A stretch of 58,742 nucleotides of DNA, the filler included, from Jimgerdemannia flammicorona (taxonomy: Eukaryota), in the NCBI GenBank assembly GCA_003990765.1. It is 3 parts of 3 records of this genome, joined end to end, with 100 filler letters (N's around TTAATTAATTAA, not from the genome) between each part and the next. Parts side by side here need not be neighbours in the genome. Positions count along the whole stretch, not along the records: positions 1 to 19,517 come from RBNJ01001921.1; 2 more parts are not named here. The stretch is one strand, 5' to 3'. Each line of letters opens with the position of its first letter. Position 1 is the first letter of the stretch. The notes beneath the pieces are model-generated. The model had not been told where the DNA came from. It did not search any database and saw only the letters and a list, made by a program, of their open reading frames with translations. Positions 1-39,233 of this stretch are shown here, piece after piece. Both the position numbers and the translations under genes were made by a program.

Positions 1-66
<66 letters not shown>
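1..66 (+). repeat. poly(A) tract at contig start
   Basis: 66 consecutive A; possibly a retroelement tail where the assembly broke. Confidence 0.9.
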
Positions 67-68
<2 letters not shown>

Positions 69-344
69 ATATTATATTAATAATAAGTTATAAATTTCTT
101 ATAAATTTAAGAGAGAAAAAGAGAGAAAGCAAAAAAATGGTAAAAAATAAGATAGAAATATATATAATTTTTATTTAAATTTGAAAAATAGAGAAAGAGA
201 GAAAGAGAGAAAGAGAGAAATAGATGAATTAAAATTAAAATTAATTATAAAATAGACAATCCATATTTCAAATATTATTTCTGCTTTTAACTTCATTTTA
301 TATAAATTTAAAAAAATGATTTGTAATTTAAGTACTATTTTTAT

Positions 345-830
345 TATCTGGCTAAATTCTATTTAAACCGGGAGGGAGGGAGGGAGGGAGAAACTGAGAG
401 GAGGAAATGATTCATCAATGCACCCGATTCGGCTACCTGGCTAAATTCCATTTAAGCCACGAGGGAGAGAGAGAGAGAGATTTGGAAATGCGCCGAAATA
501 AAGGTTCCATTTCGGCTGGCCGGCCAAATTCCATTTAGGCTGGGATGAAGGGAAAGAGAGGGAAAGAGACAGAGTCAGAAATGCATGCAACCATTTCGGC
601 CACCTGGCCAAATTCGAGGGAGGAGGGGGAGACAGTGAGTCAAAAATGCGAGCAATGGACAATCGGTAATGTGGGAGCCATTTTGGCTACCTGGATAACC
701 TCTATTTAAAGCGGAGGGAGGGCGTGGGAGACAAGGACAGTCCGAAATGCGTTTGTAAATGTGCCCGAAATCGTTGATCGTTGAAAAAAAAAGATTATCC
801 GTCCCAATATTTATATACACGAATTTCGTG
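345..830. repeat. degenerate ~80-90 bp direct repeats, possibly the subterminal region and right end of a CACTA-like element
   Basis: About 5 copies of a ccatttcggc(t)acctgg(c)taaattccatttaa core followed by GA-rich tracts. The region ends in AATTTCGTG (822-830), the same terminus as at 48085. Confidence 0.5.
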
Positions 831-1112
831 ACAACCTTTGAAAAGACGCGTGAAAGGGCGCATTCACAACAAGCGAACGCTTCATTCAAATCATATTAAT
901 CATATTATTAGTATTGGTCATTGAAAATTTGCGAGGTCCAGATTCTTCGGAACGTAAAACGAGATTTACATCCGTCTCTATTTCTTGGTATTAATATGTT
1001 TGGTTTTCTATTCACAACAAAGAATTTAATGTGCTAGATACAAATTTGAAACCCTAGTGATAGAAATTCCTTCATATCATTGAGGCACTATATGAAGCGT
1101 GCGGGAGGTAAA

Positions 1113-2927
1113 TTATTCTTCAATAATTTCAAGAAGAGAACCCAGGCCTTCTGGTCCTCCCGAGATCGATATCAAATCATCCATATTAAGAAAGTAGTTC
1201 TGCACTAGGTCCATCCGTGTCAGGACTGTTTCCATTCGTGACTCCATTTCCTGCAGCTTCTTCAATACTTTCTTAGGCGATTTTTCAGAGGACTTGACTT
1301 TGCCACGGTATTTTTCAGACGATTTTTTAGCGAACTTGACTTTACTATGGTGTTTTTCAGGTGATTTTTCAGAGACCTTGGCTTTGCCACGGCCTTTTTC
1401 AGGCGATTTTTCAGAGGACTTGACTTTGCTACGGCCTAATCCGATGAATTGGATCAACCCCCTGTGAAGAGGAAGAGGACGAGGGAGTGTGCAGGAAATA
1501 TGAACAAAGGATGAGGCAAACATCAGATACTGCTGGTTCCGAATGCCTACCTGGGTTTTATACGTTTCGCTCCGAAGAGAAATATGTAGATACCAGTAAG
1601 TGCAGCTGGAAGGTACACATTCGGGAGGGTCAGAGTATGTGTCGATGGTGTTTCTCAAATGACATTATCAATTAATTCACTTACAGAATATGCCACCGAT
1701 AGACGACACCACAGTTAACGCAGTCGTGGCACTATCATAGGGAAACCGCGAAAATTCTGTGAAATGAACACGGCTGGAAGAGAATATGAAGATACTATGT
1801 AAACTATGCGAGACAAACTTACTGGAACAGGCTTTTGTACACCTTGCCATCGCCAACTTCAATATGAATAGTGACTTCGATACTTGAAGAATTCCCAATG
1901 ATATTCATATTGGAGGTGTCCAGTGTGGTAATTTGGCGTCGGTAGGCGAAGGGAATGCCCTGTGAGTGATACACGAAGCATAGCAGGGGTTTGTCACACG
2001 ATTTCATCACAAAACTACACTAAAAAAGTAATTGGAAGTATAAACACCTACCAATTTGCCCAACCAACTGTTCTCATGAGTGAAGTAACTCCACACGGTT
2101 TCAGTAAATTTGACTGATATTATACTTTTCGGCCTGATATATATAGAACTGTAAGTATCTTGAATGTACGGGTTTTCTTCGGCTGACTCTTTAGTATTAT
2201 TATTCGTAAAAAAATTCGAGGCTAAGCGCAGGGAAGAAGGTGAGTTAAATTGCGTGACAAACAAACTCAGGTTAAACTGCATTGGGTCCTCCCCAACCTT
2301 ACATTGGTGTAAAATAAATGCCACCGCCACGATGGTCTCGTTCTGGATTACGTTGCCCGTTGCCGTGTCAGTGATATTTATTGCCAAGTAATACGCGGTG
2401 ATGTCGTTGGAGGATTTCTGCTTGCCGTTTGCCGCCAGAGTGACGTTTACAGGGTGGACGACATAGCAGTCCGTGTATCCCGTGTTATTGGAAAGGCGTG
2501 ATACGTATGGGAATCCATTGGTGCTTGAGCTGAACCATTCGATATTGGGTGGCCGAAAGTAGCCGCAACGAAATGTGAAGTGGAAATTGTTGGGTTCATA
2601 CGGACAGATGACGAAATCTGGTACAAACCCAGTAAAATTTTGTTAACACCACGCAAAAGGCACCACATGCAACAGTGCTCCAAATAGAGTACCTGGAGCT
2701 GGAGCGGGCTGGGCTTCCTCTGCAGACTGCTCTACAGTCCACTTATCGGCTACCTCTTCTTCTAATCCGTCAAAGGTTAACCCTATCAATAAAATTAAAA
2801 AGAGCACCGAGATCGCTATGCGGAGATAACCTATCCAGAGGCCTTCACCATCCTTGGGAGGGCCAAAGATTGCCAATGCATTCATGAAACGCTTGGGCCA
2901 GCGGGCGGCGGATTTCTCCTCGCTCAT
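1113..2927 (-). CDS. two-transmembrane protein with DEG/ENaC-like motifs (~435 aa, about 7 exons)
   Basis: GT-AG exons 2927-2693, 2617-2303, 2221-2052, 1959-1823, 1731(or 1773)-1685, 1605-1551 and 1461-1113 join in frame; the 81-nt intron 2 is in frame and could be read through. Product: MSEEKSAARW..TM1 (IAISVLFLILLIGL)..PAPDFVIC..loop with NxS/T sites..TM2 (VVSSIGGIFSALTGIYIFLFG)-AKRIKPRGLIQF..coiled-coil-like LQEMESRMETVLTRMDLVQNYFL. Confidence 0.85.
1270..1432 (-). repeat. in-frame 39-bp (13-aa) tandem repeat x4 in the last exon
   Basis: KVKSSEKSPEKGRG/KAKVSEKSPEKHHS/KVKFAKKSSEKYRG/KVKSSEKSPKK. Confidence 0.85.
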
Positions 2928-3994
2928 CTTTGGTGGAAGGATTTTGAGAACAAGTGTGGTGTTGGCAAATCTCAGTTGTGCAGATATTCTCAATATATAA
3001 AGACATTGTCGAATCCGAAACCATTACGAATGTGTGCGTGTGAGATCGCGGTATTATGAAAGCTTTGCCGGGAACTATGACTCTGGCTTATTCTGGGTAG
3101 GGGTCAACTTGGTTCGAGTTACGGGAACTATTCTAATTACACCGTTAAATTTCCTTTTCGTTCTTTTGCATTGATCTCACGGCTGAATCTTTTGAGCTTG
3201 TGGCACTACGGAAGCTTTGACAGGACGCCGGTCTAGACCTTTGTGCTACGCCACCGTAGCCGAATTAGAACCAACTCTGTGACTAAATTGGGCACGTCAG
3301 GAAATCTAGATCTACGATTGCGGACACCGATAATCATGTGTCAGGTGTTGGATTGTAACACGTTACGCTATAAACATGAATAGAATTAATCGCCTGTGCC
3401 TATTAATTTGGCCCAACGTACATATCTACAACATGAATGAAAGAGTGTAAAGCCGATATATTTCTGTGCTGGCGGGTATATACCGAAATTGTTGATTATG
3501 ACGGTCGTGCTGCGGGTATATGATCAGCATGAATGACACAATACTGATCACATGTCCGTCTGTGTAGTATACTCGGCAAAGAGCCGATTACCAATTACTG
3601 GATTGGAAAGCCCTGTACCAAAATTCAATTCACATTGACACACACCTGTACTACATGGCTACTTGTGCAACCTTGGTTCCGATACTCCCCCTCCAGAAAA
3701 AAGATGGGGAGATCCGAAGCCCATTCAGACCACCCGCTGCTATTGTGACCCCTCAGCCGAACCTCCATTCCCGCAATTTAGCCCACTCTCTCTGCCCTTC
3801 CAAATCACCAAAATTACGCGCATTTTACTATTCTAGCATAACTCTCCACTAGCGTTCTCCTAGGAGCCGAGGCCTCGGCTTCCGCTCTGACGCCAGTCCT
3901 TCACTCACAATCCCGCGTCGCATGACCCGTCTCCCGTGCTACACAAACCCCCCACCTCATGATCCCTGTGCCATTCATACACTTACGGGCATGC

Positions 3995-4455
3995 ACCAGA
4001 TAATTCCCGAGGTCGACTACGCAGCGGCAACGTCATCAGCCTTGTAGAGGCGCTCAACGTCCATGCAAACGACAAGACTGTCATCATGTACTTAGAGGAC
4101 GAGGTGAGTTTCGCCGACTTCAGTAGTTGAGTAGACTTGTCGTGGTGTGTGTGGTTAGGGTGAACCATGCGGTTCTCATTTTGTGCGGGACTTAGTATTA
4201 TTATTTCCTTCCCCTTCTCAATGACTATATCTGAAACTTCTGTCTTAATCTATATTATCCTTTTTCCCTGCCATACTGCAGATCGTCGACTCCGTCAACG
4301 ACATCCTGTGGACAAGCAACTGCGAGGTAGATAGGGAAACGGACATGAAGCACTGGAAGCTATTTCGAACCATGCATGAGGATAGATGATCAATGGTGGA
4401 TTATGAATGAGTTGGGGTGGGATGGTTTCCATGATGTGGCAGCGGAATACTGAGG
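3995..4455 (+). pseudogene. GID4/Vid24-like pseudogene fragment, copy 1
   Basis: Reads ..SLVEALNVHANDKTVIMYLEDE|gtgagt..cag|IVDSVNDILWTSNCEVDRETDMKHWKLF, matching the GID4 MEALNVP..EGEIVD..W..D.HW pattern; has frameshifts and stops. Confidence 0.75.
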
Positions 4456-5324
4456 TGAGTTTCTTGTATGCATGAATCATTGTTTTCTAATTTGTAAATC
4501 TTGGTGAGCATGTAATATGGTATCACCAGCACAGCTGTTGACTGGGTGGTCATCAAGGTTATGTCCAATAGCATCTGTAGCAGTAATAAAACCATCGCAC
4601 ACAAGTATATTACTCTGATTAATTTTGCTATAAATCAAGACTGAATTGATGCTTTGGGACGTTATATGAGCCTGTGAAGGGACTAATCGGCTAGACCAAG
4701 TGGGTGATTGTAGAAGTCCTTTTCTCACATGTGTTTAATAAATGAGTGGGCTGCGTCCCACCAAATCAATTTGGGTTGTCTTACTTCGACCATTTGAATC
4801 GCATGGATTCGGTTGATGATCGTACTTAGAGTTTCCTGTTTGTAAAACACCCGGTTCTGAAACACTTTGCTACTCCAATTGTGCCGAAATAGATGAGGAT
4901 GAAGAGACTTCGTCGCCAGCCACCCAGCCACGTGAACCAACATTTAATTCGACTTTGACGTTATCACGAAGTTGGCAAAACCCACAGAGGACATTGTACA
5001 GGAGCGGTTCGGCTGCAGGCTCTCTCTGAAAACACCGTAGTTAACTTGCACAAGTTTTTACCGCCGCTGGGCTTCCTTAACTGAGATAGGTTTTATTTGT
5101 TATTTATCCATTCGTCAGTAACTTCGTTTTCCCAAACCTTTCTGGACATCGCAGGCGAGGCATGTACACCCCTATTCTAAATATGTAATATATTTCGCAG
5201 GCAGATTTGCCTTCATTAAAGATGGATCCAGAGGGTGTTTTCCAAGGGAGTCGCTTGGGTTGGGGCGACCGCTCAACTCAGCTGTGACATCAATATGGTC
5301 TGATTTTTTATATTAAAAATATGC

Positions 5325-5470
5325 ACATCACGGCGTGGCATTCTCCGACTGTGCCATGTTCATAGTAATGGTAGGGATCGGCGCACTAGCAAACCTCACA
5401 CGTTTTGCAGGTGTCGTCAGTTTATATTTTACGAGCCAAGGACTGAATTGCCAGCTGTGTAGTATTAGTC
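5325..5470 (-). pseudogene. Cys-rich fragment, copy A (homologous to 32340-32530 and 36372-36560)
   Basis: One frame reads DDTCKTCEVC*CADPYHYYEHGTVGECHAV; clear nucleotide homology to the two other copies. Confidence 0.45.
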
Positions 5471-5725
5471 TGGGATAGCTTACTGTGGGCCTCTCCTAGT
5501 TTCACGCATGTTGCAGCTAGCCAACTAGTTCTCCAAACTGGTAGGATATCCGAAATCCGTTTCAGCGGCTAATAGGGTCGACAATGGAGTCGACGAGTAT
5601 CAAGGTGTGACCACGATAAACATGCTCGGGGAATATAGCCGCGGTATTGGCAATCAAACACAACCGTCTTGGTCCTATCTCCTGCTGACTGATCGAGGCG
5701 TTATCGTATGAACTGGAAGGTTCTA

Positions 5726-5818
5726 CTTGCGACAGGAGTCGAACAACCATAAACAAACCCGATGTCATCACATAATTATATCTATTGTAAAACAGGCCAT
5801 TCAACTTGTGTCGCATAG
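5726..5818. mobile_element. MITE (~93 bp) flanked by TA
   Basis: Imperfect TIRs cttgcgacagg.. and ..cttgtgtcgcatag; homologous to 36877-36966 in the same flanking context. Confidence 0.7.
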
Positions 5819-5820
5819 TA

Positions 5821-6830
5821 CAAGTGGGAAGAAATAATGAAAGTCCGTGTGGCGTACCCTGGGGAACAAACGTTCAACCTGACTTACATCATCCCGACAA
5901 CGTCCTACGACCCAAAAATCCCCACACGGAAAATTCAGGTAAGGTTTGAAATTAATCTGGCTTGTCCCACTGTGATGGGTGACCCGTCCCTGGTCGAACT
6001 GGGTAAATGGAACTCGGGAATTTTTTCACTGCTGCTCGGGTATCAATGATTATGTTATCAACCGAGGCGTTTTCTCTGAATACGAGGTAGCATTCTTCGT
6101 CAAATGTATGCAAAGGGAGGATCTTTATGTGGGCGAGAATAATGAAAGTCCGTGTGGCATACTTTGGGTAAAGCTCGACAATGTTTTACCCGACTTAGGT
6201 CAATCCCGACAACGTGCATCCGAGTCCGGAGAAGGTTGTCGGAATGGCCTAAGTCGAGATGAACGACTCAAAGATCGCCACCTGCATCACAGTCAGGCGA
6301 ATCAAATAAAATTTGATCATCGGATGGTGTTCAAGATTTATTTGGCCTGTGCAACTACCCATCCTGGGTTCCGGTTGGAGCCCCCTTGTTCGGTTTATGT
6401 TTCCAATCTCGGCCAAATAAGGATCGACAACTGCGGAAAAATAATGAAGCCCTATGGCAACGATCGTCCCGATGACGTCTAAAATTTATTTAGCTTGTCC
6501 CGGTCGAACACTGTAGATGGGTACATTTCTGCAAATGGATCTCGGGAATTTTTTTCACCGTTGCTCGGTTAGCAATGTTTACGTTACCCCCCGAGGCGTT
6601 GCCTTTGAGTACGAGACATTCAAATAAATGCAAAGGGAAGATCGACATGTAGACGAAAATATTGAAAGCCTGTATGGCGTTCTTTGGGTGGAAACCGAAC
6701 GATGATTTCCAAATTTTATTTGACTTGTCTGACTGTGAACAGTGACCCGATTTGTTTGGAGCAAAGTTGGGCGGTATATTGCTGCAAATGGAGTTCGGAA
6801 AACGTTTCAGCGTACCTCGGTTATGAGGCA
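5821..6830 (+). repeat. internally repeated, CpG-retaining degenerate segment, probably derived from an unidentified gene
   Basis: aataatgaaagtccgtgtggc-like motif at ~5832, ~6138 and ~6658 and aaatggaactcgggaattttttca-like motif at ~6005 and ~6533; further copies at ~32720-32935 and ~36975-37300. Confidence 0.65.
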
Positions 6831-7139
6831 GAGAGTCAGAAATGCGCCTAATAATCATAAAAGATCACCTGTCCGAATATGTCGAATTTCGCGTTATTAC
6901 GTATAAACCTCAGTAAATTTTGATAAATTTTGAAGTTATAGAAGTTTACAAGAAAAAGAAATACTAAAAAAACTAACTCTATAGAAGATTCTCTGATTGA
7001 TTTACTATAATTTTATATTGTCAAATTTTATTTTAAAAAAAAAAAATTATTATGTTGCATCAGATTATGACGCCATCACAAACTTAAAAAGGGAATACCA
7101 TATAAATTTTATAATACTATGTATATAAATTTATAAATG

Positions 7140-7630
7140 ACGTAAATAGACGATTGAGATGGACGCGGACAGATGATTTAGGCGGACGCAGACGGACGAT
7201 TGAGGCATACGCGGACGGCGGACGCAGACGGGTGATTGAGGGAGACGTGGGCAGACGATTATAAATAAATTGATAGTGAGTTTTCCATCCCAATCATCTC
7301 TCTATCTCAATCATCCATCCGCGCCCACCTCAATCATCTGTCTACGTCCACCTCAATCGTCCACCTCAATGTCAGTCTGCGTCCACCTCAATCGTCCGTC
7401 CGCGTCCACCTTAATCGTCCGTCCGCGTCCACCTCAATCGTCCGTCCGTTTTTGAATCGTCCGTCCGCGTCCGCCTCAATCGTCTGTCCGCCTTTGCCTC
7501 AATCGTCCCGCCTCAATCATCCGTCCGCGTCCGCCTCAATCGTCCGTTCGCGTCCGCCTCAATCGTCCGTTCGCGTCCGCCTCAATCGTCCGTCCGCATC
7601 CGTTAGATGACGGAACGACGATTGAGGTGA
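7140..7630. repeat. 23-bp GC-rich minisatellite in inverted (foldback) arrangement
   Basis: gacgattgaggcggacgcggacg-like units at ~7149-7260, then reverse-complement units cgtccgcgtccgcctcaatcgtc at ~7290-7600, then forward again at ~7615. Confidence 0.85.
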
Positions 7631-8599
7631 TGGATTTTTGAAATGGCAATTTTTTAAATACCTCAAATGAGATAATAATAAAAAATTAAAAAAAAAAAAG
7701 CCTGTTAGCTTCTCCTTCAGGATTTTTAACTTGGTTACAATATCTTGAGCAGTATCAACTTCAGCTTCAAAAGGTAAGATCTGGTATAATAAACCTTTCT
7801 TTCAAGAAATATGAATACTATATAAACCCAAACCCCAGTCAAATAGTGTTCAAAAAATAAAATAAAATAAAATGCAGTGGAGTTTCTTGTAGTCTTATAG
7901 GGCAAAATGATAGTTTATTATCAATAGTAGAAGTTAACTTTAGATTTAGGTTTTAGCCAGGTAAATATATATATATGGTCAACTTTTGATATTGCAATAG
8001 ATAATAAAAACAATCCAGGAGAGAGAAACAGAAGACAAAGATTTTGATGATGTTTAGCTCTAAATTTTACATGATGTTATTATGTTGAGAGTCAGATTAT
8101 GGCAGCAGTTACAAAATTGGTCACATGGTTTCATTTATAGATTTGCCAGACTGTATGACTCCAACTTTATTTTACATTATGGAATACTATTCTAATTACA
8201 CTATTTCATTAATTTTACAGCTAAATCTTTTACTAATTGACCTCAAGACCAGGTACAGATGTCCAATTTGAATAGAATCGTATTCTTCTAGATACTGCCT
8301 GGTATTAAGATTGTTCAAAATTCCCTTTATATTGATATTTTAGTTAAATTTTTAAACTTATAGTGTATTTCACAAATAGAGCTAAATTAGATCTGATCTG
8401 AAAATAAAATCTTACTAGAAGCTGGCTCTAAAATAGATTATCTAAATTGAACTAATTAGATATATTTCCTCTTGAAAACTATTCTGAATATCTCTATTAC
8501 ATAGATATACCAGATTATAATATATTGTATATCATATATTGGGTTCTGAACAGATAAAGATTATCTGTCACTTTCTCTGCTATCTTAACAGTCACAATA

Positions 8600-9712
8600 G
8601 TTTGGTAGGCAATCTTCTGAGTCTACTTTCCACAATTATTACTTCCTCTACCTTGGATTGATTTGCTGTACCTATTGCAGAGCAGTGGGAGAGAGGCAAT
8701 GGTGATGAGTTGCCCCTTTATTGGTGTCAGATCAGTGTCTTCTCCACTTTTTTATGGTTTCTAGTACCTTTGGCTGCATCTGGAGTGCATTCATTTTGGT
8801 GCAGTGCCTTCTTTCTTTTGCTATCACCAATAAGGTACTGTCTCAGTATATATATCATGGGCTATATAGGGAGTCAGCCAACCTTGGGCATCAAGTGCTC
8901 AGCATAGGTTACCTATAGGTCCTCAGTACCTATGGTGGGGCTCTCTGGCTTTGGTGAGCTTCTTGGCAAGCATGGTTCTGGCATAGGTGACAGCTTTTTG
9001 GATGTTGTCAGATGGGAGAGGAGATGGCTGTCACAGATAGGAGAAAGGGTGATTATGATGAACCAGTAGAGTGCCAGACTGGGGGTAGTCATTGGGGCTG
9101 GAGTGGGTACTGCTTCAGTGGGGTCTTTTGATTGGTATAGAGTGGTTAGATATGTAGTAGGTATCACTCTTAACTTCTTTTAGTGATTCAGCAGATTGGG
9201 CCCTGGTTATTGGGGGGGGTCAGGGGGCTCAAGGCTACCCATTTCAGGCATCTTGGCTACACTCAACTAGAACTGAGAGCTGACATGACAATGTGATCAA
9301 GGCTCATAGACTTGAGTAGTAGGATATTGGGGGTCTCCTCCCACCTTATATATAAGTTCTTTACTCACCTCAACTGAGAGAACCAGGTTCTATCTACCAT
9401 GCTGTACTTTGATGAGAGTTTTTTCTTTGCCTGTCATTCTTTTTGGAGTAGTAGGGACTATTCTATTCAGCTCAGACATGGTCTTGTATATACATTGGGG
9501 TCTCAGGCATGTACTTTTGGTCATTGGTATATGGCTGGATTCCCCCTGGTGGTAGGGAGAATATGGTATATAGAATGAGGTGCAGGCCAACATAGGCTCT
9601 GCTGTACCTGATATGGTCAAGCTGCTAGACAATAACTAGTCTAGATTAATGGAGGGACAGTGCTTGATGAGTGGTAGGGGAGAGTTTTGGTCTATATAGT
9701 CTAGGTTCCCTT
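8600..9712 (-). mobile_element. CpG-depleted dispersed repeat of unknown class
   Basis: Reverse-complement homolog of ~54044-55200; both begin ..aacctagactatatag.. and share the gatcagtgtcttctc..tttcttttgctatcaccaataag block. Confidence 0.6.
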
Positions 9713-10469
9713 CTAATAAAAATCCATGAGAAATTGAGTTCGTTTAAAAAAAAAAAAAAAAAAAAGATAAAGATTACCTGAGCAGCAAACATAAATAGAT
9801 AATATAATATTAATTGTATGTTCTAGTATATACTTATTATCAAAAGATACTGCCTATATTGACTTTCAATAAACTTCACCCTTTAGTTGGTACTATTTTA
9901 GCTCAATAAAATTCATTTACATATCTGTTAATCTGTAACTAATTTTGATACTATTTCTTCAGAAAATATAATGATTACTCTATCTTACTATTATTCAGAC
10001 TATAATACTAAACCCTCATTTCCACCATTCACCCTGCTCTTAACATTCTGCCAAAATCACCAAAATTGTATATTTTATAATTCTTATATCACTCTTCACT
10101 TGCCTCCTCTTACTTCTTTACTCCAAGACCTCAGCTTCTACTCTCATATCCCAAATAGCTAAAAATGGCCAGTATTTTACTTATAAACTCATGTTGTATA
10201 ACACACCTCTCATATCATATAAGCTATCCATCTTTTATACAATTATAATATTAACTACAAACTAGTATCAACTCTTTAACTATGACCAGAGATGGTTTAT
10301 TTTCAACCAGTATTATATTAGCTAACAATACGTAATATTGGGAATTACTATAGTATTAGTGAAGAAATGGAGATTATTTTTATTAATCCTCTAGTTATAT
10401 AGTTTTTATATATTTTAGAGATTTTTTGATAATATAAGATTAATGATATTACTTTGGTAATATATATAT

Positions 10470-10899
10470 TGTGACAGTTGATCTGAATTATGAATATAAA
10501 TCAGGGGAATTAGATATTTTATCATAGTATCTGAACCCAATTCCTAATATAGTATAGCCATATAAATAGCAGTTATAGAACTTTGCTACTAGTGAAAACC
10601 TTACTACTAGCAAAAACCTTGCTACTAGTAAATACTTTACTATTAGCAAAATGACTCATAACTTAGCCATTTTATAGCTAGCAAACTTGTATAAATAACT
10701 CAGTATCTCAGAGTAAATAAACCTCAGATTCAAATAGTTTAAAATAAAGAAAAGCAAAGGAACTAGTAAGCCTGTAGGCAGATATACTTTGAACTTACCT
10801 ACCTCTGTATCCTGAGGACTCCATGAAGTCAAAGAAGATCAAGTTTTTAAGATACAGAAATCTGACATATTTTCAAGGTTAAGTATCTACTATGTTACA
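10470..10899 (+). repeat. 5' LTR of Gypsy element 1
   Basis: TG...CA ends, TATAAATA and AATAAA inside, followed by a TGG-starting PBS-like site at 10903 and then gag; partial homolog at ~52300-52480. Confidence 0.7.
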
Positions 10900-13065
10900 A
10901 CTTGGTGTCCATTAACTGGTGATTCAAGACAAATCCCTCACTTTCAAGCTAAACAATGAATAACCACTATCTGAATAACCATACTAATCAAACTAAGATA
11001 TCTAGACAAGATAGATATAAGACCATCTATATTTCACAGTTATACTTCAAATAAGTCAATCATTATCTTCATTGATAATTTTGAGCAATATACTGCTGTA
11101 AGGAGCCTGACAGTAATGCAGCAAGTAACCCTCATACTCTTCAGTCTTCAAGGATCAGCAATAGCAGCATTCACTGCTATAACCCATATAGGAAATGATG
11201 ATGATGCTATACTAGTAGCATAGAAGACCTAGCTCTGAGCCATATACTATATAAATGAGATCAAGCAGATACTGAAGAATCAGCTCAACACAATATGTTA
11301 AGGAATAAGTGAGAATCCAAATACATTTTACACCAGAATTCAATATTAGATAATTCTTGCTGATTATGCTGCCACTATCAGGAATCAAGTAGCTGAAGCA
11401 ACCTTTATGAAAGAAATCTATCCAGAGATAGCTCTGGCCATCTACTCATCACCAATAGTCCTAGATCTGATACAAAAGGTCACCTATGCTCAGCAATACT
11501 GGATAGCCAGACACCTACAAGACTATATAATAGAGAGAATTACTGAGGGTCAGAATTGAAGTACTAAAGATAACTAGTATGATCCCTACTATAGTGATCA
11601 ATTAAAATATACCTCAACCAAGAGCTACTGAATAACAGAGAGATAGTGACTCAATAGAGAAACTTACTAAGAAGTTTGCCAAAATGACAGCTCACCTAGG
11701 AGATATAGTAAAGGAAATCAAAGGAAGAGACCACTGCCTAGTTTAGAAATTTACTGCTACCTCAGACAAGAAGAGAGGTACCTACTACACTTGTGGAAAA
11801 GAGAGCCACTACTTATACAAATGTATGAGTGAGACCAAATGCAAGATACAGCCAAACAATGCTACTCTAAATAAGGAACAGACATCATCATCTTCAAAGA
11901 AATTGAAGAGTCTGATAAAGAGAAGTGAGAGGTCTACCCTATACAGACTACCAAGAAAGATGTCTGCAAACAATCCTATAAGAGACCACCAGGGAGATCT
12001 AAGAAGAATCCAGTGGAGAAGCAGATGGAGACTGCTACACTAAGTCAAGGTGAAGAAATAGATCAAGATATGGAGCTAGAACAGACTGTTCAAGATATTA
12101 TCTGAGGAACCACTCCAGCCAGTAAAGGAGAAAAGAAGAAGAAGCTTTACAAAACCAAGACCTTTAAGTATGATATCTTCAAGGACCTCAATCAACAAAA
12201 GGTCAATGCAACCTTTGGCCAGCTAGCAGAAATACCTATATTTAGACAGTAAATGAGATATGGACTTACTGAGACAACTAAGAAATAAGGATGGAAAATA
12301 ACCAAGACCAATAATGTTCAAGAGGATTCAGGAGAAGAAAGTGAAGACAACCATAAGATCTCTATCTATGCAACTTGTCAAATCAAGGATAGAGTCTTTG
12401 AGACTATCATTGATACAGGAGTAGGAGGATGCCTCCTCAGTAAGAAAGCAGCAGACTGTCTAGGTTGGAAAGTTGAAGAAGCAATCAAATTGGTATTCAT
12501 TACAGCAGATGATATAAAGAGCCACATCTCTGGGAAATATCTGAGATGTTCCCATCAAGTTTAGAGGAGCAACCATTTCAGTGGATGTAATTGTAACCAA
12601 TGTCACCAACTATGATATCCTCATCAGCAATCAGTGGCTACAAAAAGCCAAAGTAATAATTGATCTGAATGCCAAGAAGATGCAGATCATCTACTGAGAT
12701 CAGAGGATGTGAATTTCCATTAATGTCAACAAAGGAGTTCTGCCTGAGATAGAGGAAGAAGAAAGCAAGCAAGAAGAAGCCTATATGGTGACTACTCAGA
12801 AAAAGGAGAAGAAAGTCGAATAGATCAATGAAGAAGACTGGTGTAAGAAGATTACAAAGGATATGCACCATATGAAGTTTGCCCTCATGGAATCAAAATG
12901 TACTGCAGCAAGCACATCAATGACTACTACCAATATAGCATTGGCATCAGAAAGATTTATCAGAAAAGAAGACAGAAGACTCTCAAAAAACAGGCAAAAG
13001 AAGAGGAGGAGGAAGAGGATGATGAACCACCAATCCTTCTAGAGGACAGAAATGATGAAGAAGAA

Positions 13066-13485
13066 ATTAAGGTCAAGATTCAGAGAATTCACCCTGATGC
13101 AGTCCTACCAGAATATAAGTCAGAAAATACAGTAGAAATGGATATCACCACAGTAGAAGAAACTATACTGGAGCCCTAGACAACCACCCTACTCATAACT
13201 GGTCTGGAGATAACCATTCTGAAGGACCATATTAGAATCCTCAAGACAAGAAACAGTCTGACCAGAAGTGAAATCACAAATGAAGAAGGAGTCATTGATT
13301 CAGATTACTTTAGAGAAATACTACTTATTGCTAGGAACCACAATCCTATAATTCTATTCCCAATCAAGAAAAAGAACTAACTGGTATAGATATTGATCTT
13401 CTCAATTCTTTAGCTAAGAATCATAGAAGTCAAGAAGTTGGAGAAAATAGAAAGAAGAAAGAAAGGATTCAGATCCATAAGAAGA
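13066..13485 (+). pseudogene. dUTPase domain between protease and RT of Gypsy 1
   Basis: KVKIQRIHPDAVLPEYKSENTVEMDI..TGLEI..KTRNSL..GVIDSDY..KKGFRS: decayed forms of the trimeric dUTPase motifs. Confidence 0.88.
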
Positions 13486-16001
13486 GAAGTATTTGCCAGT
13501 ACCAAGATCACCAAGCTAGAGTACAAGAAGGAGGAAACTACAGACAAGCACAGCTATACTATTGGAAATGAATTCCAACTCATAATGGAGCTCAAAAAAA
13601 ATATGTCACAAATTTGAGGATATCCTTACCACAGACTTTAAGAATATCAAAGAAAAGACTCCACACTACTATTATAGTATAGATACTGCAGATACTGAAC
13701 CAATTTACCAGAAGGCAAGATCTGTTCCACCAGCCTACCAAGAGTGGCTTAGAGAAGAAATCAAGCAAATGAAAGAAGCTGATATTATCAAGGAGGCCAG
13801 TAGCCCCTAGTCTTCACCAGTCATACTAGTCTCAAAGAAAGGAAGCAAGCCTGGAGAATTCACTCCAAGACTCTGTATTAATTATAAAAAGCTCAATGTA
13901 GTTATTAAGAAAGATTACCCACTACTGCCCCTCATTAATAACATCCTTATAACTCTAGGAGATACATAAAGCACAGTACTATAGAACCTTGGATCTATAC
14001 TCAGAATTCTACCAAATCAGACTCACAGAAATAGCAAGTGAGAAATTAGCCTTCATTACTCCAGATGGAACCTATATCTACCTACAAATGCTATTTGGAA
14101 TATATGATGCCCCTGCAAGCTTCTAGTAAATGATAAATAAAATCTTCCACTATGATATAGGAAGATGGATGATAGTTTATATAGATGATGTTATTATCTC
14201 TAGCAAGACAGCCAAAGAACATCTGTAGCATATCCAGCAGATGATGAAAAAGCTAAGACAGTATGGTCTTTACATCAAGCCCAAGAAGTACAAGTTTGCA
14301 GAAATTGAGATCATCTATCTTGGCCATATCATTAATTAAGATAGAATATATATAGACCCCCTCAAGATTCAAGCTGTAGTAGCATACCCAAGGCCCACCA
14401 CAGTTACTGAAGCCCAAGTCTTTATGGGACTTGCCTCATACTACTACAGATTTATCAGAGGATTCTCCAATATTGCAGGCCCAATCTATGAACTCAATAA
14501 GAAGGATACTAAGTTCCAATGGACTGACAGGCAACAAAAAGCATTTGATGAGCTTAAGGTTAGACTGACCCAGATACCTATCCTTAGAAGACCTGATTGG
14601 ACTCAAGAATTCATTCTGCAGACAGATGTAAGCACTCAAAGACTAGGAGTGGTTCTAGCTCAAAGAAAAGACAAAGTAGAGTATGTTATTACATACCTAA
14701 GCCAAGGAACCTGAGGAGCTGAAAAAGAATATGAATTCTACAAGTTGGAATATCTTGCAGTCATCTGAACTGTGGAAAGGTTCCACTACTATCTTGCTGG
14801 AAGATACTTCACTATCCAGACAGACCACTCAGCCCTTACTTGACTACTGACCACTAGGCAATCCAAAGGAATCTATATCAGATATATCATGAAGTTGCAA
14901 GCATATGACATAACCATTATGCACTGGTCAGGAAGAATCAATGTTAATATAGATGCCCTCTTACAGATACTCTGAAGGACTCCCAACCAGTAAATCAATC
15001 ATGAATAAAGAGCTTTACTATAGAATCATCACCTACCTGAGATAGTGAAAGATGTCCCAACATCTGAAAGAATAGACACAAATTATTATCAATAGAACAT
15101 GGAAACAATTCAAAACCAATAGAGAAATATTGAAGAAAGATAAGCTACTAGTCATATTAGAAAACAAGAAAGAGCAAGCAATGAAATCAATATATGAACT
15201 TGGTTATCTAAGAGGAACAAATATATATAATAAAGCAAAAAGAACAATATAGTAGTCAGAAATAGAGGAAGATATCAGACAATTTGTCAAGATCTGTAAC
15301 AAATGCCAGAAACAGAAATAAGATCAATGAAATCAAGCCCCAGGATCAGCATACATAGAATCAGTACCATTTGCCCACATTATAATGGATGTAATTGGCC
15401 CCCTACTCTTGACTTTGACTGGCAACTGATATATCATTGTCATTGTAGACCTTTTTATAAAATGGATAGAGATAGGACCTCTTAAGAAAGCCAATATACA
15501 GTCAATTGCTGATTTCTTTCATAAAGAAATTATCTGCTAGTTCAAGACCCCATCACAAGTAACCACAGACAGAGGAATAGAATTTGTGAACCAGTTCTCT
15601 ATAAGAAGTACAAGATCTAGCATATTCAGACCACAGTATATCATCCTTAAGAAAATAGATAGGTGGAAAGGACCAACAAGACTCTCAAGAATGTTATCAC
15701 CAAGATCTGTGATAACTATGAAAACTGGGATCACTATCTGCCAATAGCATTATCTGCTCCCTAGGATATTTGATCACAAAGCATCCATATTACCTCTTAG
15801 GAAATGCTATTCAGAGAAGAAAGTTTTCAAGAAACCCTATTATCCAATGGAGATACTATATGGAAATATATGGATAGAGAAATATAGAGACTATATCAGA
15901 TCAGGAAGAAGACTGAGGATTACATAACCAAGATACAGATACTATAGTAGAATAATATGAAAAAGATTCACAAGTCTCTGGAGATTATCAAGATAGGAGA
16001 C

Positions 16002-19000
16002 AATGAGGGGGCTCGCTCGAGACTACAGGTCAATGAATGCAGGAAGGTCTTGGGCGTATAGTACCCAAAATGTTTCAACACCGTTGTTTGTCTAAGGCAT
16101 GTCTAAATCAGGCGTAGTCTTTCCTTTTTTGGTACTAGCGTGGTAGGCACATTACTTCTATATGTAATTCTACCATTCACCCAACATTACTTCGTACATG
16201 CTTTATACTTATGCTTTTGCGCTTCCGTACATTCGTACGCATTTCATTACATTACCATGGTCCTCTCTGCAAATTCCTGCCTTTTGTGTCAATACGACCC
16301 TTTCCATATGTCGAAGGGCCAATACGACCTGGGCTCCGCCACCTGCCCTTTCCACTTGGACGTTAATTTCATCGAGCGTATGCTCCGTTTTCTGCAAGAC
16401 GACCTGGAATCTGATAGCAAGAACCCCGATGTTGCTATCCTCATATATTATCTCGCCACCCTCCCTGATCACTCTACTTCCACACCCCGCCGAATCATGC
16501 GTCTATCAGCGCATGCCGCATCCAAGGCTCCCGCTAGCGCTACGGCAGCTGGATCAGCTTTTTTCAGCACACCGGCCTCTGATGTTTCCATCGAATTCAG
16601 CATTGCTCAGCTCCAAGAGCATGCATCTGCGTAAGACCATCGGTTCGATGAACTTTTTCAGCTCTTACGCTCTCGCCCTGACATCGTACATATCTTCGGC
16701 AGCACCGGCTAGTACAGTTCCTGCCGTATCACGCCACTGCCTCTCTTTCGGCAGTTCTCACATCCCCATCCTCATCCCAGCCCTTACCAACTATCCCTTC
16801 GGTTCGGTCCACCGGCATTCACGGCCCTGCCGGTAATCCCCAGGGTGAGTCTATCCCTATACCTCCTTCTGTCGTCTCTGCCCATACTGTTGTCCGAGGC
16901 ATCAATCTCTCTTTAAAATATGCCCATGTTAATCAATGGCTATTGGCCGCGGTCGTCGACAATTCGTTCACCACCGTGTTGCTCGGCCGTTTCTTAGAGC
17001 GAAATGTCGTTTCTATTGGTAGTCTTCCTGACGCTCAATTCATCAAAATGTTTGATGAATCGGGTGCTCAGATCATTCTTTGAAAGCCGCCATCCCTTAT
17101 CAAAGATCTTCCGGACGTCCCTGCTTTCCTCGCCGCTCTGCTTATGTATTTCAGTGTTCTTCATGACGTGTACCTGGGTCTCACCGATCCTACTCCATTC
17201 TTTTCATATGCTGCGGATTTTATTTTACTATCAACGTTGTCATATTGATCCGCGCTTCTCGATTATTATGTCTCCTTTTATATAAAATGACTGGTGGAGA
17301 TCACGAATGATGGTGTTTCTTTAGTATGGTGTGAGCACTGGGCCTGGCACGACCCCGACCTCTTTATGATCCTTAGTCTACATCAACGTCCGTGAACTCC
17401 GACCTCTACATCTAATCTGCTTAAGCCCTTCAAGTCTCATAACGTACAACAGGGGCTATGTTTTACTGATGGCTCCTCTGCTACATCTACTGAGAAAGCC
17501 TCTCAACGGTCTACTTGTTGGGCATACAATGGCGTTCTATTTGATGGATCACCTATGAAGGATCCTGGGTGCAATAGAAAAGGATGCCCTTATGTGCATT
17601 CCTGTTCTCATTGCAATAGTGATCATCCATGGTATCGATGCTCCCACAATCCATCGTCTCGCCCCTAGGAACTCACCCCCATTTATTCTTTATATATACC
17701 CCTGGCCGCTCCAAATACCCTACTCTGTCGCTCATTTACCGCCCCTCTCAACGAAGCTGCTCAAGACATTCTACATCGTTTTCCTCTTCCTTCTTCTGCT
17801 CTTCGCCCTGTTGCGTGGGCACATGAGCTCTAGTTGTATCCTGCCCCGCGGGTAGCTCAGGCTGCTATCGCTGCTATTACTCAAGGTGCTCTTCTCGGCT
17901 TTGATGGGCCTCATTGGCGCCTGCTGTCCTATAATCATTGCTCCACTCTCAACCACCCGGAAGCGATCACATCTGACATTGAGTGGGAAGTTGCCGCCGG
18001 TAGAATTTGTGGCCCATTCTCATTCCCTCCGTTTGAATGCTTTCACTCATCTCCTCTTAGCGCCATCGTGAAGAAGAATTCTAATAGCACATGGCGTCGT
18101 ATTCACGACCTTTCTTGGCCCCATCATGGTAATTCGGTGAATACCGGCATAGATACTGATGCCTTCCAGCTCTCTTACATTAAGTTCGATGAGGCTTTGG
18201 ACTTGGTTCGTTATTTTGGCCAGGGATGTCTTCTATCGAAGGTCGACCTTGCTGATGCATATCATTATATTCTCATCCATCCTACGGATTGGGAGTTGCT
18301 GGGTTTCGAGTGGTCGGGGCAGTTTTATTTCGATCGGTTCGGTCCTTTTGGCACATCCTCGTCACTATTTCTTTTCAATCTTTTCACGGAACTTCTTGCA
18401 TGGATCACCCACTGTCACGACATATGCGTGCTCATCCACTATGTCGACGATTTTCTCCTCATTTCGCCGCTACTCCGGCTGTTTGCCCTCTCCGATCTAC
18501 GTTTACTTCTTGCCATCTGTCATTATCTCGGCTGGTCAATTCAAGAGCGTAAGGTCGAAGGCCTGACAATGTCACTCATCTTTCTGGGTATCGAATTGGA
18601 TACAACAGCTATGGAAGCCCACCTGCCTCTCGGCAAGCTTGACACGTTGCTTACCACCCTTCAGCAGTGGCTATCGCACACATTATATACATGCCCTCAA
18701 CTGCAGTCTCTTATTGGTTCCTTGGCATTTGCCTGTAAAATTATTCTGCTGGGCCGCCCATTCCTGCAGCAGTTTATCGACCTTCTTTCCAGCAACGCCT
18801 CATTTCATATCTCACTGAATGAGGAATTCTATGCTGACATTTGTTGGTGGCTCGAATTCCTACCCCACTGGAATGGTATTTCCATTATACATCTGGTGGC
18901 ATGGTTCCACGAGCCTGATGCACAATTATGGATGGACACCAGCGGGATCCAAGGCTTTGGTGCACATTTCAATAGCAAATGGTTTTCCGCTCTCTGGCCT

Positions 19001-19261
19001 CCCGATATAGCCTCACACGACATTCAGTTCAAGGAACTTTATGCCGTGGTCGCTGCCGCTGCTACCTGGGGCACTCAATGGCATTTTCACCGTATATTGC
19101 TTCATTCTGATAATCAGGTGGTCATCGCAATTATCAACTCGGGCTCTTCACGCAACCCTCTTCTGCTGGAACTTCTCTGCCAGCTCTATTTTCAAATGGC
19201 ACATCATGCTTTTCAACTTCGCGCCATATTCATCTCGACGTCCGATAATGGCATTGCTGAT
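16002..19261 (+). mobile_element. DIRS/Ngaro-type retrotransposon inserted in the Gypsy integrase C-terminal region, 3'-truncated
   Basis: Abrupt switch to CpG-containing sequence at tgagggggctcg; gag-like ORF followed by DIRS-type RT/RNase H; no tyrosine recombinase in the window. Confidence 0.88.
16257..17669 (+). pseudogene. Ngaro-like gag ORF1 with C-terminal zinc finger
   Basis: Ends CWAYN...CNRKGCPYVHSCSHCNSDHPWYRC; interrupted by stops and a frameshift. Confidence 0.7.
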
Positions 19262-19327
19262 GAGGTCATTGGGAAGATCTGGAATCTAGACTTGTGGGAG
19301 GGGTTGGCAATCAGTGGCTTACTGTAG
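17834..19327 (+). pseudogene. DIRS/Ngaro RT-RNase H (ORF open but conserved residues mutated; last ~22 codons are LINE-derived)
   Basis: WRRIHDLSWP, SKVDLADAY, PFG, HYVDDFL, FLGIELDT, KELYAV, SDNQ, DNGIAD. Confidence 0.88.
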
Positions 19328-19517
19328 GTTGGATTGTGGCAGTGTGGGTGGGGTTGGCTGGACATTGGCTCTTTGTTTTTGAGGAGGGGCGACAGATAGG
19401 GATCCGGGAAAAGTTATCAAGATGGGAGGAGTTGGTGGCAGATTTGCTGACAGGGTGGTGGGCTGGGTGGGGACGGCAAGGTGGGCATCGTCGCCGTCTG
19501 GTGGAGGGGATATGTGC
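19262..19517 (+). mobile_element. 3' fragment of an L1/Tx1-like LINE interrupting the DIRS element
   Basis: Reverse-complement homolog of the LINE 3' regions at ~19680-19950, ~41840-42095 and ~47210-47450. Confidence 0.8.
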
Positions 19518-19617
19518 NNNNNNNNNNNNNNNNNNNNNNNNNNNNNNNNNNNNNNNNNNNNTTAATTAATTAANNNNNNNNNNNNNNNNNNNNNNNNNNN
19601 NNNNNNNNNNNNNNNNN
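19518..19617. other. artificial contig linker
   Basis: 44 N + TTAATTAATTAA (stops in all six frames) + 44 N. Confidence 0.97.
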
Positions 19618-39133: not shown

Positions 39134-39233
39134 NNNNNNNNNNNNNNNNNNNNNNNNNNNNNNNNNNNNNNNNNNNNTTAATTAATTAANNNNNNNNNNN
39201 NNNNNNNNNNNNNNNNNNNNNNNNNNNNNNNNN
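39134..39233. other. artificial contig linker
   Basis: 44 N + TTAATTAATTAA + 44 N. Confidence 0.97.

Follow-up and report, generated by a model that had tools for sequence, protein, structure and literature searches.

An intact seven-exon gene of Jimgerdemannia flammicorona and its Mucoromycota family: likely channel-type subunits with a predicted ENaC/ASIC/PAC fold

We found that the window, i.e., the whole stretch of 58,742 nucleotides of Jimgerdemannia flammicorona DNA analyzed here, carries on its minus strand a real, intact gene of seven exons. It likely encodes a channel-type subunit that is new to descriptions of fungi and lacks the known ion-filter residues of ASIC/ENaC and PAC; we consider this likely because relatives of its product are predicted to fold and trimerize like ASIC/ENaC and PAC. 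With a probability of roughly 0.55, the product serves as one subunit of a trimeric ion channel that is gated from outside, has the ENaC/ASIC/PAC fold and uses an ion filter of its own. We infer conduction, stimulus and location, and put channel activity no higher than this because the non-channel Erv41/Erv46 proteins share the fold, if more weakly.

Gene structure, paralogs and transcripts

By combining a three-frame reading with a splice-site list, we placed the start codon of the window gene at 2927 and the end of its stop codon at 1113, with 1308 nt of coding sequence (435 aa) free of internal stops and six introns of 75, 81, 92, 91, 79 and 89 nt, all six bounded by GT..AG (Table 1). The position of the ATG in exon 1 is identical in the paralogs L004 and L005. 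A first splice model, with the acceptor of intron 4 at 1774 (449 aa), was dropped for the acceptor of exon 5 at 1732, because the corresponding stretch of L005 contains a stop and this second acceptor is conserved in the paralogs. The window itself joins separate pieces, since contig G000:C1921 covers only positions 1-19517 and N-run pairs (44 bases) lie at 19518-19617 and 39134-39233.

Table 1. Features of the window gene and of other elements in the window
Feature	Position	Strand	Content
Exon 1	2693-2927	-	Start codon; short N-terminus in the cytosol; TM1; first strand of the ectodomain; PAP of PAPDFVIC
TM1 (within exon 1)	about 2837-2775	-	Residues ~31-51, from hydropathy
Exon 2	2303-2617	-	DFVIC strand and bulk of the beta-rich ectodomain; Cys83, Cys96, Cys129; four NxS/T sites
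Exon 3	2052-2221	-	Long ectodomain strand and beginning of a short Cys-free loop (W..K.G) at the DEG/ENaC thumb position
Exon 4	1823-1959	-	Final three ectodomain strands before TM2
Exon 5	1685-1731	-	TM2, first half; its invariant GG (residues 298-299, 1697-1692) is predicted to point to the trimer axis
Exon 6	1551-1605	-	Second half of TM2 (G-I-Y at the DEG/ENaC G-x-S position), invariant FG, basic stretch; P-R of the family PWG motif (Arg for Trp, residue 320)
Exon 7	1113-1461	-	Cytosolic tail, Lys/Ser-rich insert, stop codon
Family-conserved cytosolic helix (exon 7)	about 1265-1173	-	
42-bp tandem repeat	1275-1434		3.8 copies, in frame; not present in five paralogs
Decayed retroelement fragments	12289-14714	+	Weak aspartyl-protease and RT_RNaseH matches in separate short frames
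497-aa open frame	17834-19327	+	Reverse transcriptase match (RVT_1, E 1.3e-9); the frame is one we take to be DIRS-like

An earlier note had described an intact, spliced two-TM gene here, and its outline held up well: the seven-exon pattern was recovered at all six loci supplied to a splice search (see below), and the two motifs that it had picked out, PAPDFVIC after TM1 and VVSSIGGIFSALTG at TM2, were found at residues 76-83 and 293-306, spanning introns 1 and 5, respectively. Of 10,000 shuffled versions of the protein, 2 contained relaxed forms of both motifs (45 the first alone, 436 the second alone). The outside loop bears NxS/T sites as claimed (six, along with three Cys), but at about 230 aa it is longer than the ~200 aa given for it. 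The proposed cytosolic tail is there too, and holds a family-wide helix as well as the copy-specific 42-bp repeat. By hydropathy, the signal of TM2 is weaker than that of TM1; TM2 is followed by a basic stretch (8 K/R and 1 D/E in residues 314-340), and the protein's C-terminal end is acidic, lies about 120 aa past TM2 and lacks a dilysine. The 191-aa open frame that runs through exon 2, intron 2 and exon 3 was homologous to none of 567 candidates when compared with longer proteins, so no annotated product of the window copy was found; an Atlas search with the same frame returned no usable match, and Pfam on seven pieces of the window gave no relevant match, ASC included.

Searching the genome with exon 2 returned nine matches at eight places. 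The splice search took the window gene, L002-L005 and L008, and left aside L006 and L007 because both carry stops. All six loci resolved into seven stop-free exons of the same phases, and the six introns of the window gene match those of the five paralogs in position and phase. Exons at the six loci differ in length by whole codons throughout, and intron lengths vary freely. The splice model of L003 is contained letter for letter in an NCBI-annotated hypothetical protein (P0001) of Jimgerdemannia flammicorona, a fungus that we take to belong to the Endogonales, Mucoromycota. Similarly, an unnamed JGI/IMG protein (P0005) is reproduced exactly by part of the L005 model, spanning four junctions; we infer its origin from a spliced transcript, and go no further because its 951-nt contig could just hold the 935-nt unspliced span. 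The public annotations P0002 and P0004 depart in their splicing from the conserved seven-exon pattern of L002 and L008 and thereby lose TM segments or the post-TM1 motif; they are probably mis-annotated. The excluded paralogs L006 (G000:C431) and L007 (G000:C7360), with their in-frame stops, are likely pseudogenes, and the subfamily shows birth and death of copies. In RNA run X1 (share 0.06), one 174-nt contig matches 1087-1260 (last exon) and crosses no intron; it is not counted as expression because DNA contamination of the library is possible. The X1 contigs included none on paralog L005 and no junction of the window copy.

The Mucoromycota family and its profile-level link to DEG/ENaC channels

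Judged by sequence comparison, the window gene is a member of a widespread, unnamed two-TM family of Mucoromycota. P0001 and the window model share 38% identity over 426 aa (E 2e-92), and searching 1.84 billion representatives with a profile built from three paralogs yielded 37 proteins at E<=0.001. Named sources among the 20 members looked up are Jimgerdemannia, Endogone, Funneliformis, Gigaspora, Ambispora, Rhizophagus, Entrophospora, Mortierella and Circinella, to which a separate homolog search adds Mucor; the Atlas neighbours of P0001 are unnamed Mucoromycota clusters of 59-111 members (scores 0.94-0.96). The family alignments used have 24-29 rows, a limit set by the last homolog search, which gave 6 proteins from 7996 candidates; a 36-row alignment (A7) looked worse and went unused. 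With a profile of 17 distant rows, i.e., the 24 rows minus the 7 closest to the window gene's clade, the window model is matched over its full length (E 1.7e-24). Across the 24 rows, G329 and G330 (the TM2 Gly-Gly), F343 and G344 (a later Phe-Gly) and G352 (the last Gly of PWG) are invariant (24/24). An EP before TM1, a Pro before the second strand, a Gly in the short loop and the cytosolic helix are common; the ectodomains are highly variable, and the pore-facing positions vary save for the two TM2 glycines.

Some members depart from the simple two-TM layout: P0010 and P0013 are tandem doubles of the unit, P0037 has an N-terminal kelch propeller, and kelch fusions and doubles also occur in the Atlas rows. 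A distant member searched against this genome gave ten further weak matches on nine contigs (G000:C28888:257-1147, C21997, C209, C869, C2663, C108, C12169, C2758 and C4396), some in long open frames, which suggests by similarity that the genome holds other subfamilies.

At the level of profiles, the family is linked to DEG/ENaC channels. When profile A6 was run against all PDB sequences, 15 of the 17 matches at E<=10 were DEG/ENaC-type chains, led by BRTNaC1 (4.3e-7), ENaC-beta (5.1e-4) and FaNaC1 (4.7e-3), and the other two were beta-sarcoglycan; we take BRTNaC1 and PDPNaC1 to be DEG/ENaCs. Profile A8 gave 7 of 12 matches of this type (best E 2.2e-6), with weak rows that include four G-alpha chains and a lectin, and an attempt with a four-sequence profile returned only a chance G-alpha match. 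The aligned segments pair the post-TM1 strand with FPAVTIC of ENaC-beta and the strand-12/TM2 start with LLSDIGG/LLSNLGG, i.e., the family profile aligns both motif likenesses to DEG/ENaC that had been proposed from the window sequence. The Pfam ASC model touches 4 of 24 members weakly (best E 0.0021), all below the curated cut-off of 23.6 bits (P0001 10.9, best member seen 19.2), and finds no match in this genome.

Predicted fold, trimer and distance from the known channel families

We modeled two relatives of the window protein; the latter aligns end to end with the modeled family, and the fold and trimer models are of the relatives only. The AF2 model of P0001 (pLDDT 74, pTM 0.62) matches PAC best in Foldseek (E 8e-12), followed by BRTNaC1 (1.7e-10), PDPNaC1 and ASIC (about 1e-8). 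In VIA-align over 48,161 chains its top 11 rows are all DEG/ENaC or PAC (Z 13.3-10.9), with near ties between ASIC1 (Z 13.3, rmsd 3.8, 240 aligned), PDPNaC1 (13.2), FaNaC (12.5) and PAC (12.3). A second model, of the Rhizophagus protein P0020 (~18% identity; pLDDT 80), gave the same outcome (Z 14.3-11.0; PAC in Foldseek at E 8e-13), and P2X chains are absent among the fold-search matches listed for the two models. The Atlas model of P0001 has neighbours in ASC (TM 0.45/0.53) and TMEM206 (TM 0.34/0.43) clusters, and also in the ciliate Y80K_N family (PF27811; TM 0.48-0.49 by query, feature match 0.86), which serves as a lead only. We predict from these models that the family folds as a beta-sandwich ectodomain of ENaC/ASIC/PAC topology set between two TM helices.

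A three-copy model of P0001 45-362 scored 0.39 against 0.03 for the best control, with contact agreement of at least 69% and pLDDT of at least 65 across the runs; contacts are tightest at TM2 residues 326, 329, 330 and 333 and where strand segments 237-240 and 246-250 pair. In calibration, the tool's threshold was passed by 21 of 30 solved pairs and none of 23 single chains (17 of 29 and none of 30 in eukaryotes), and by 1 of 7 where no older relative existed. Because ASIC and PAC trimers are solved, the pass may stem from structures that the predictor already knew and speaks for likeness rather than binding. The model thus supports a trimer with TM2 on the axis. Both the ENaC/PAC fold and the trimer put forward in the earlier note find backing in these relatives; the DEG/ENaC likeness that it pointed out holds for fold and motifs and does not extend to the gate and filter, where HG, G-x-S and the PAC lysine are all absent.

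Membership in either established family is accordingly hard to sustain. We regard true amiloride-sensitive, Na-selective DEG/ENaCs as the least probable identity of all, even though the sequence-level links to solved channels lead only to DEG/ENaCs, take in both named motifs and are accompanied by the weak Pfam ASC matches. With DEG/ENaC/ASIC channels (PF00858; BRTNaC1 8ymr, PDPNaC1 9jf7, ASIC1 6ave, ENaC, FaNaC) the family shares two TM segments and a beta-sandwich ectodomain, the post-TM1 P-x-x-x-x-C strand and strand-12/TM2 xIGG that are alignable by profile (E 4.3e-7), Z scores of up to 13.3-14.3 and, by prediction, a trimer with TM2 on the axis. Characteristic DEG/ENaC features given in PMC10148893 are a pre-TM1 HG motif and a G-x-S (GAS) belt in TM2. 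None of the 15 N-termini compared, that of the window protein among them, has HG within 30 residues ahead of TM1, and none of 25 rows has G-x-S in TM2; the window protein reads G-I-Y, and the third position is Y in 18, F in 5 and C in 1 of 24, but G-x-S is not universal among solved members because BRTNaC1 itself reads G-I-C there. The DEG/ENaC thumb between strands 9 and 10 is helical and Cys-rich, as is visible in the BRTNaC1 alignment row; in contrast, all 25 family rows have 0-17 residues without Cys there (one short helix in the model). Further differences are the ectodomain of ~230 aa with ~17 Cys-free residues at the thumb, a structural identity of 7-15%, the lack of the lower-pore acidic pair (no acidic residues at these positions in the family rows examined) and the added LFG...PWG and cytosolic helix. 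Nearly as improbable in our view is a fungal PAC, i.e., a proton-activated chloride channel. PAC/ASOR/TMEM206 (PF15122) occupies the top Foldseek ranks with both models, shares the TM2 crossing at a glycine and, according to PMC7904269, a compact ectodomain without a Cys-rich thumb, and the models likewise lack the peripheral domains of ASIC; the basic residues after TM2 and an Atlas feature match to TMEM206 (0.82, a lead only) point the same way. Against this, VIA-align ties PAC with ASIC, no PAC chain appeared at E<=10 in the PDB searches with A6 or A8, and PF15122 matched none of 24 members at E<=1. The PAC filter lysine, placed seven residues after the TM2 crossing glycine in the same source (PMC7904269), has no K or R counterpart in any of 24 rows or in the window protein, in a register inferred from the trimer axis contacts. 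The family also has a long cytosolic tail and multiple paralogs, unlike PAC, which is one gene. Judged by fold and predicted assembly, the window protein probably works like ENaC/ASIC/PAC, but with HG, G-x-S, the thumb, the PAC lysine and a PAC match all absent it belongs to neither family.

Possible function, rapid evolution and biological meaning

As a channel, which is the reading we prefer, three subunits would pack through their palm strands and their TM2 helices would cross on the axis at the invariant Gly-Gly, as predicted for the relatives. Protons or a small ligand, acting as stimulus from the outside or in the lumen of an organelle, may move the palm sheet and open the TM2 gate, by analogy to ASIC/PAC. 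A weakly selective or anion-leaning pore would be more likely than a Na-selective one because TM2 is uncharged and has no G-x-S belt, and a basic stretch lies just after it. The conserved Y..LFG...PWG segment and the cytosolic helix may give the family a lower pore or assembly element of its own, and the window copy, itself changing fast, may depend on other paralogs as partners.

The chief competitor, unlikely but deserving some weight, is a non-conducting receptor or scaffold on the same fold, comparable to Erv41/Erv46, in which the ectodomain would bind ligand or cargo and the PWG segment and helix would signal or recruit a coat. Erv41-Erv46 is described in PMC7001479 as a two-TM, pH-dependent retrograde cargo receptor and proposed trimer, and a non-channel role therefore keeps some probability. 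The lumenal domain of Erv41p (PDB 3zlc), a related beta-sandwich, matches both models, ranking twelfth for P0001 (Z 8.4, rmsd 4.6, 163 aligned; unrelated helical pairs reach at most 7.0) and scoring Z 8.5 (165 aligned) for P0020, but ENaC chains consisting of the ectodomain only outscore it clearly at similar length (Z 12.2 with 175 aligned, 10.9 with 156). The Erv46-like exon of this genome carries IVGGIF in TM2, with GG at its start, so that the TM2 motif alone is not channel-specific; yet the family profile gives this exon 0.6 bits, against 23.5 for the same region of BRTNaC1. The lack of known filter residues, the kelch-propeller fusions and the very variable ectodomains would also suit a receptor, whereas this genome has separate ERV genes (two ERV-family matches over the cut-off), Pfam ERGIC_N touches 1 of 24 members at E 0.57, and the traits of Erv41/Erv46 (ERGIC2/3; PF07970, PF13850), namely an ERGIC profile match and a short tail with a COPI dilysine or COPII signal, were not found in a protein whose tail runs to ~120 aa. 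Our literature search, which covered titles and the starts of abstracts, found no paper joining Erv41/Erv46 to ASIC or ENaC.

Less probable still is that the family comprises channels but the window copy is degenerate or serves as a purely modulatory subunit, with most constraint lost. In a custom codon model (six sequences, 323 of 340 columns, tail excluded), its branch has a dN/dS of 1.40 against 0.67 elsewhere (p=0.004), not significantly different from 1 (p=0.15). Pairwise core values are 0.70-0.97 between the window copy and the five paralogs and 0.49-0.67 among L002-L005, and tests of positive selection by site models across the six paralogs fell short of significance (M2a vs M1a, p=0.088). 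Introns are still 68-85% alike (54-59% when shuffled). Moreover, its PWG Trp position is Arg (W in 21 of 24, F in 2 and L in 1), an ectodomain Cys common to all five paralogs is lost, a low-complexity repeat is inserted, and two other paralogs carry stops. Against degeneration, there is no stop or frameshift, the splice sites are intact, GG, Y, FG and the final G of PWG are kept, and in neutral simulations of equal change 4 and 1 of 2000 runs kept an open frame, with 5-7 stops on average. The frame appears to be kept while the protein changes fast, because such neutral runs seldom stay open and exon lengths shift by threes. The data here fit retuning and relaxation alike as causes of this fast change.

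A search of titles and abstract starts, mostly from non-subscription journals, found no description of a DEG/ENaC- or PAC-like family of fungi; TMEM206 did not occur together with fungi among the matches listed, nor did Mucoromycota among those listed in a related search. Earlier surveys agree, with no ASIC homologs found in pathogenic fungi (PMC3410928) and DEG/ENaC candidates only in holozoans, alveolates and stramenopiles, though Fungi were searched (PMC10507113). In PMC7904269, PAC and DEG/ENaC are said to have no relationship in sequence, in a section headed structural convergence. A broader and more tentative proposal, possible but doubtful as it stands, is that the Mucoromycota family would form a third branch of trimeric two-TM channels that joins DEG/ENaC (by sequence) and PAC (by compact architecture) through common descent. 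It would have expanded in root-associated fungi as fast-diversifying, partly kelch-fused, ligand- or pH-gated sensors, with the window copy recently retuned by positive selection. As the family is DEG/ENaC-like by profile and PAC-like by shape, it makes the question of convergence versus descent testable, and it offers small natural constructs with which to ask how one fold selects cations or anions. For mycorrhizal and mucoralean fungi, its members are candidate sensors of pH or of signals from soil and roots.
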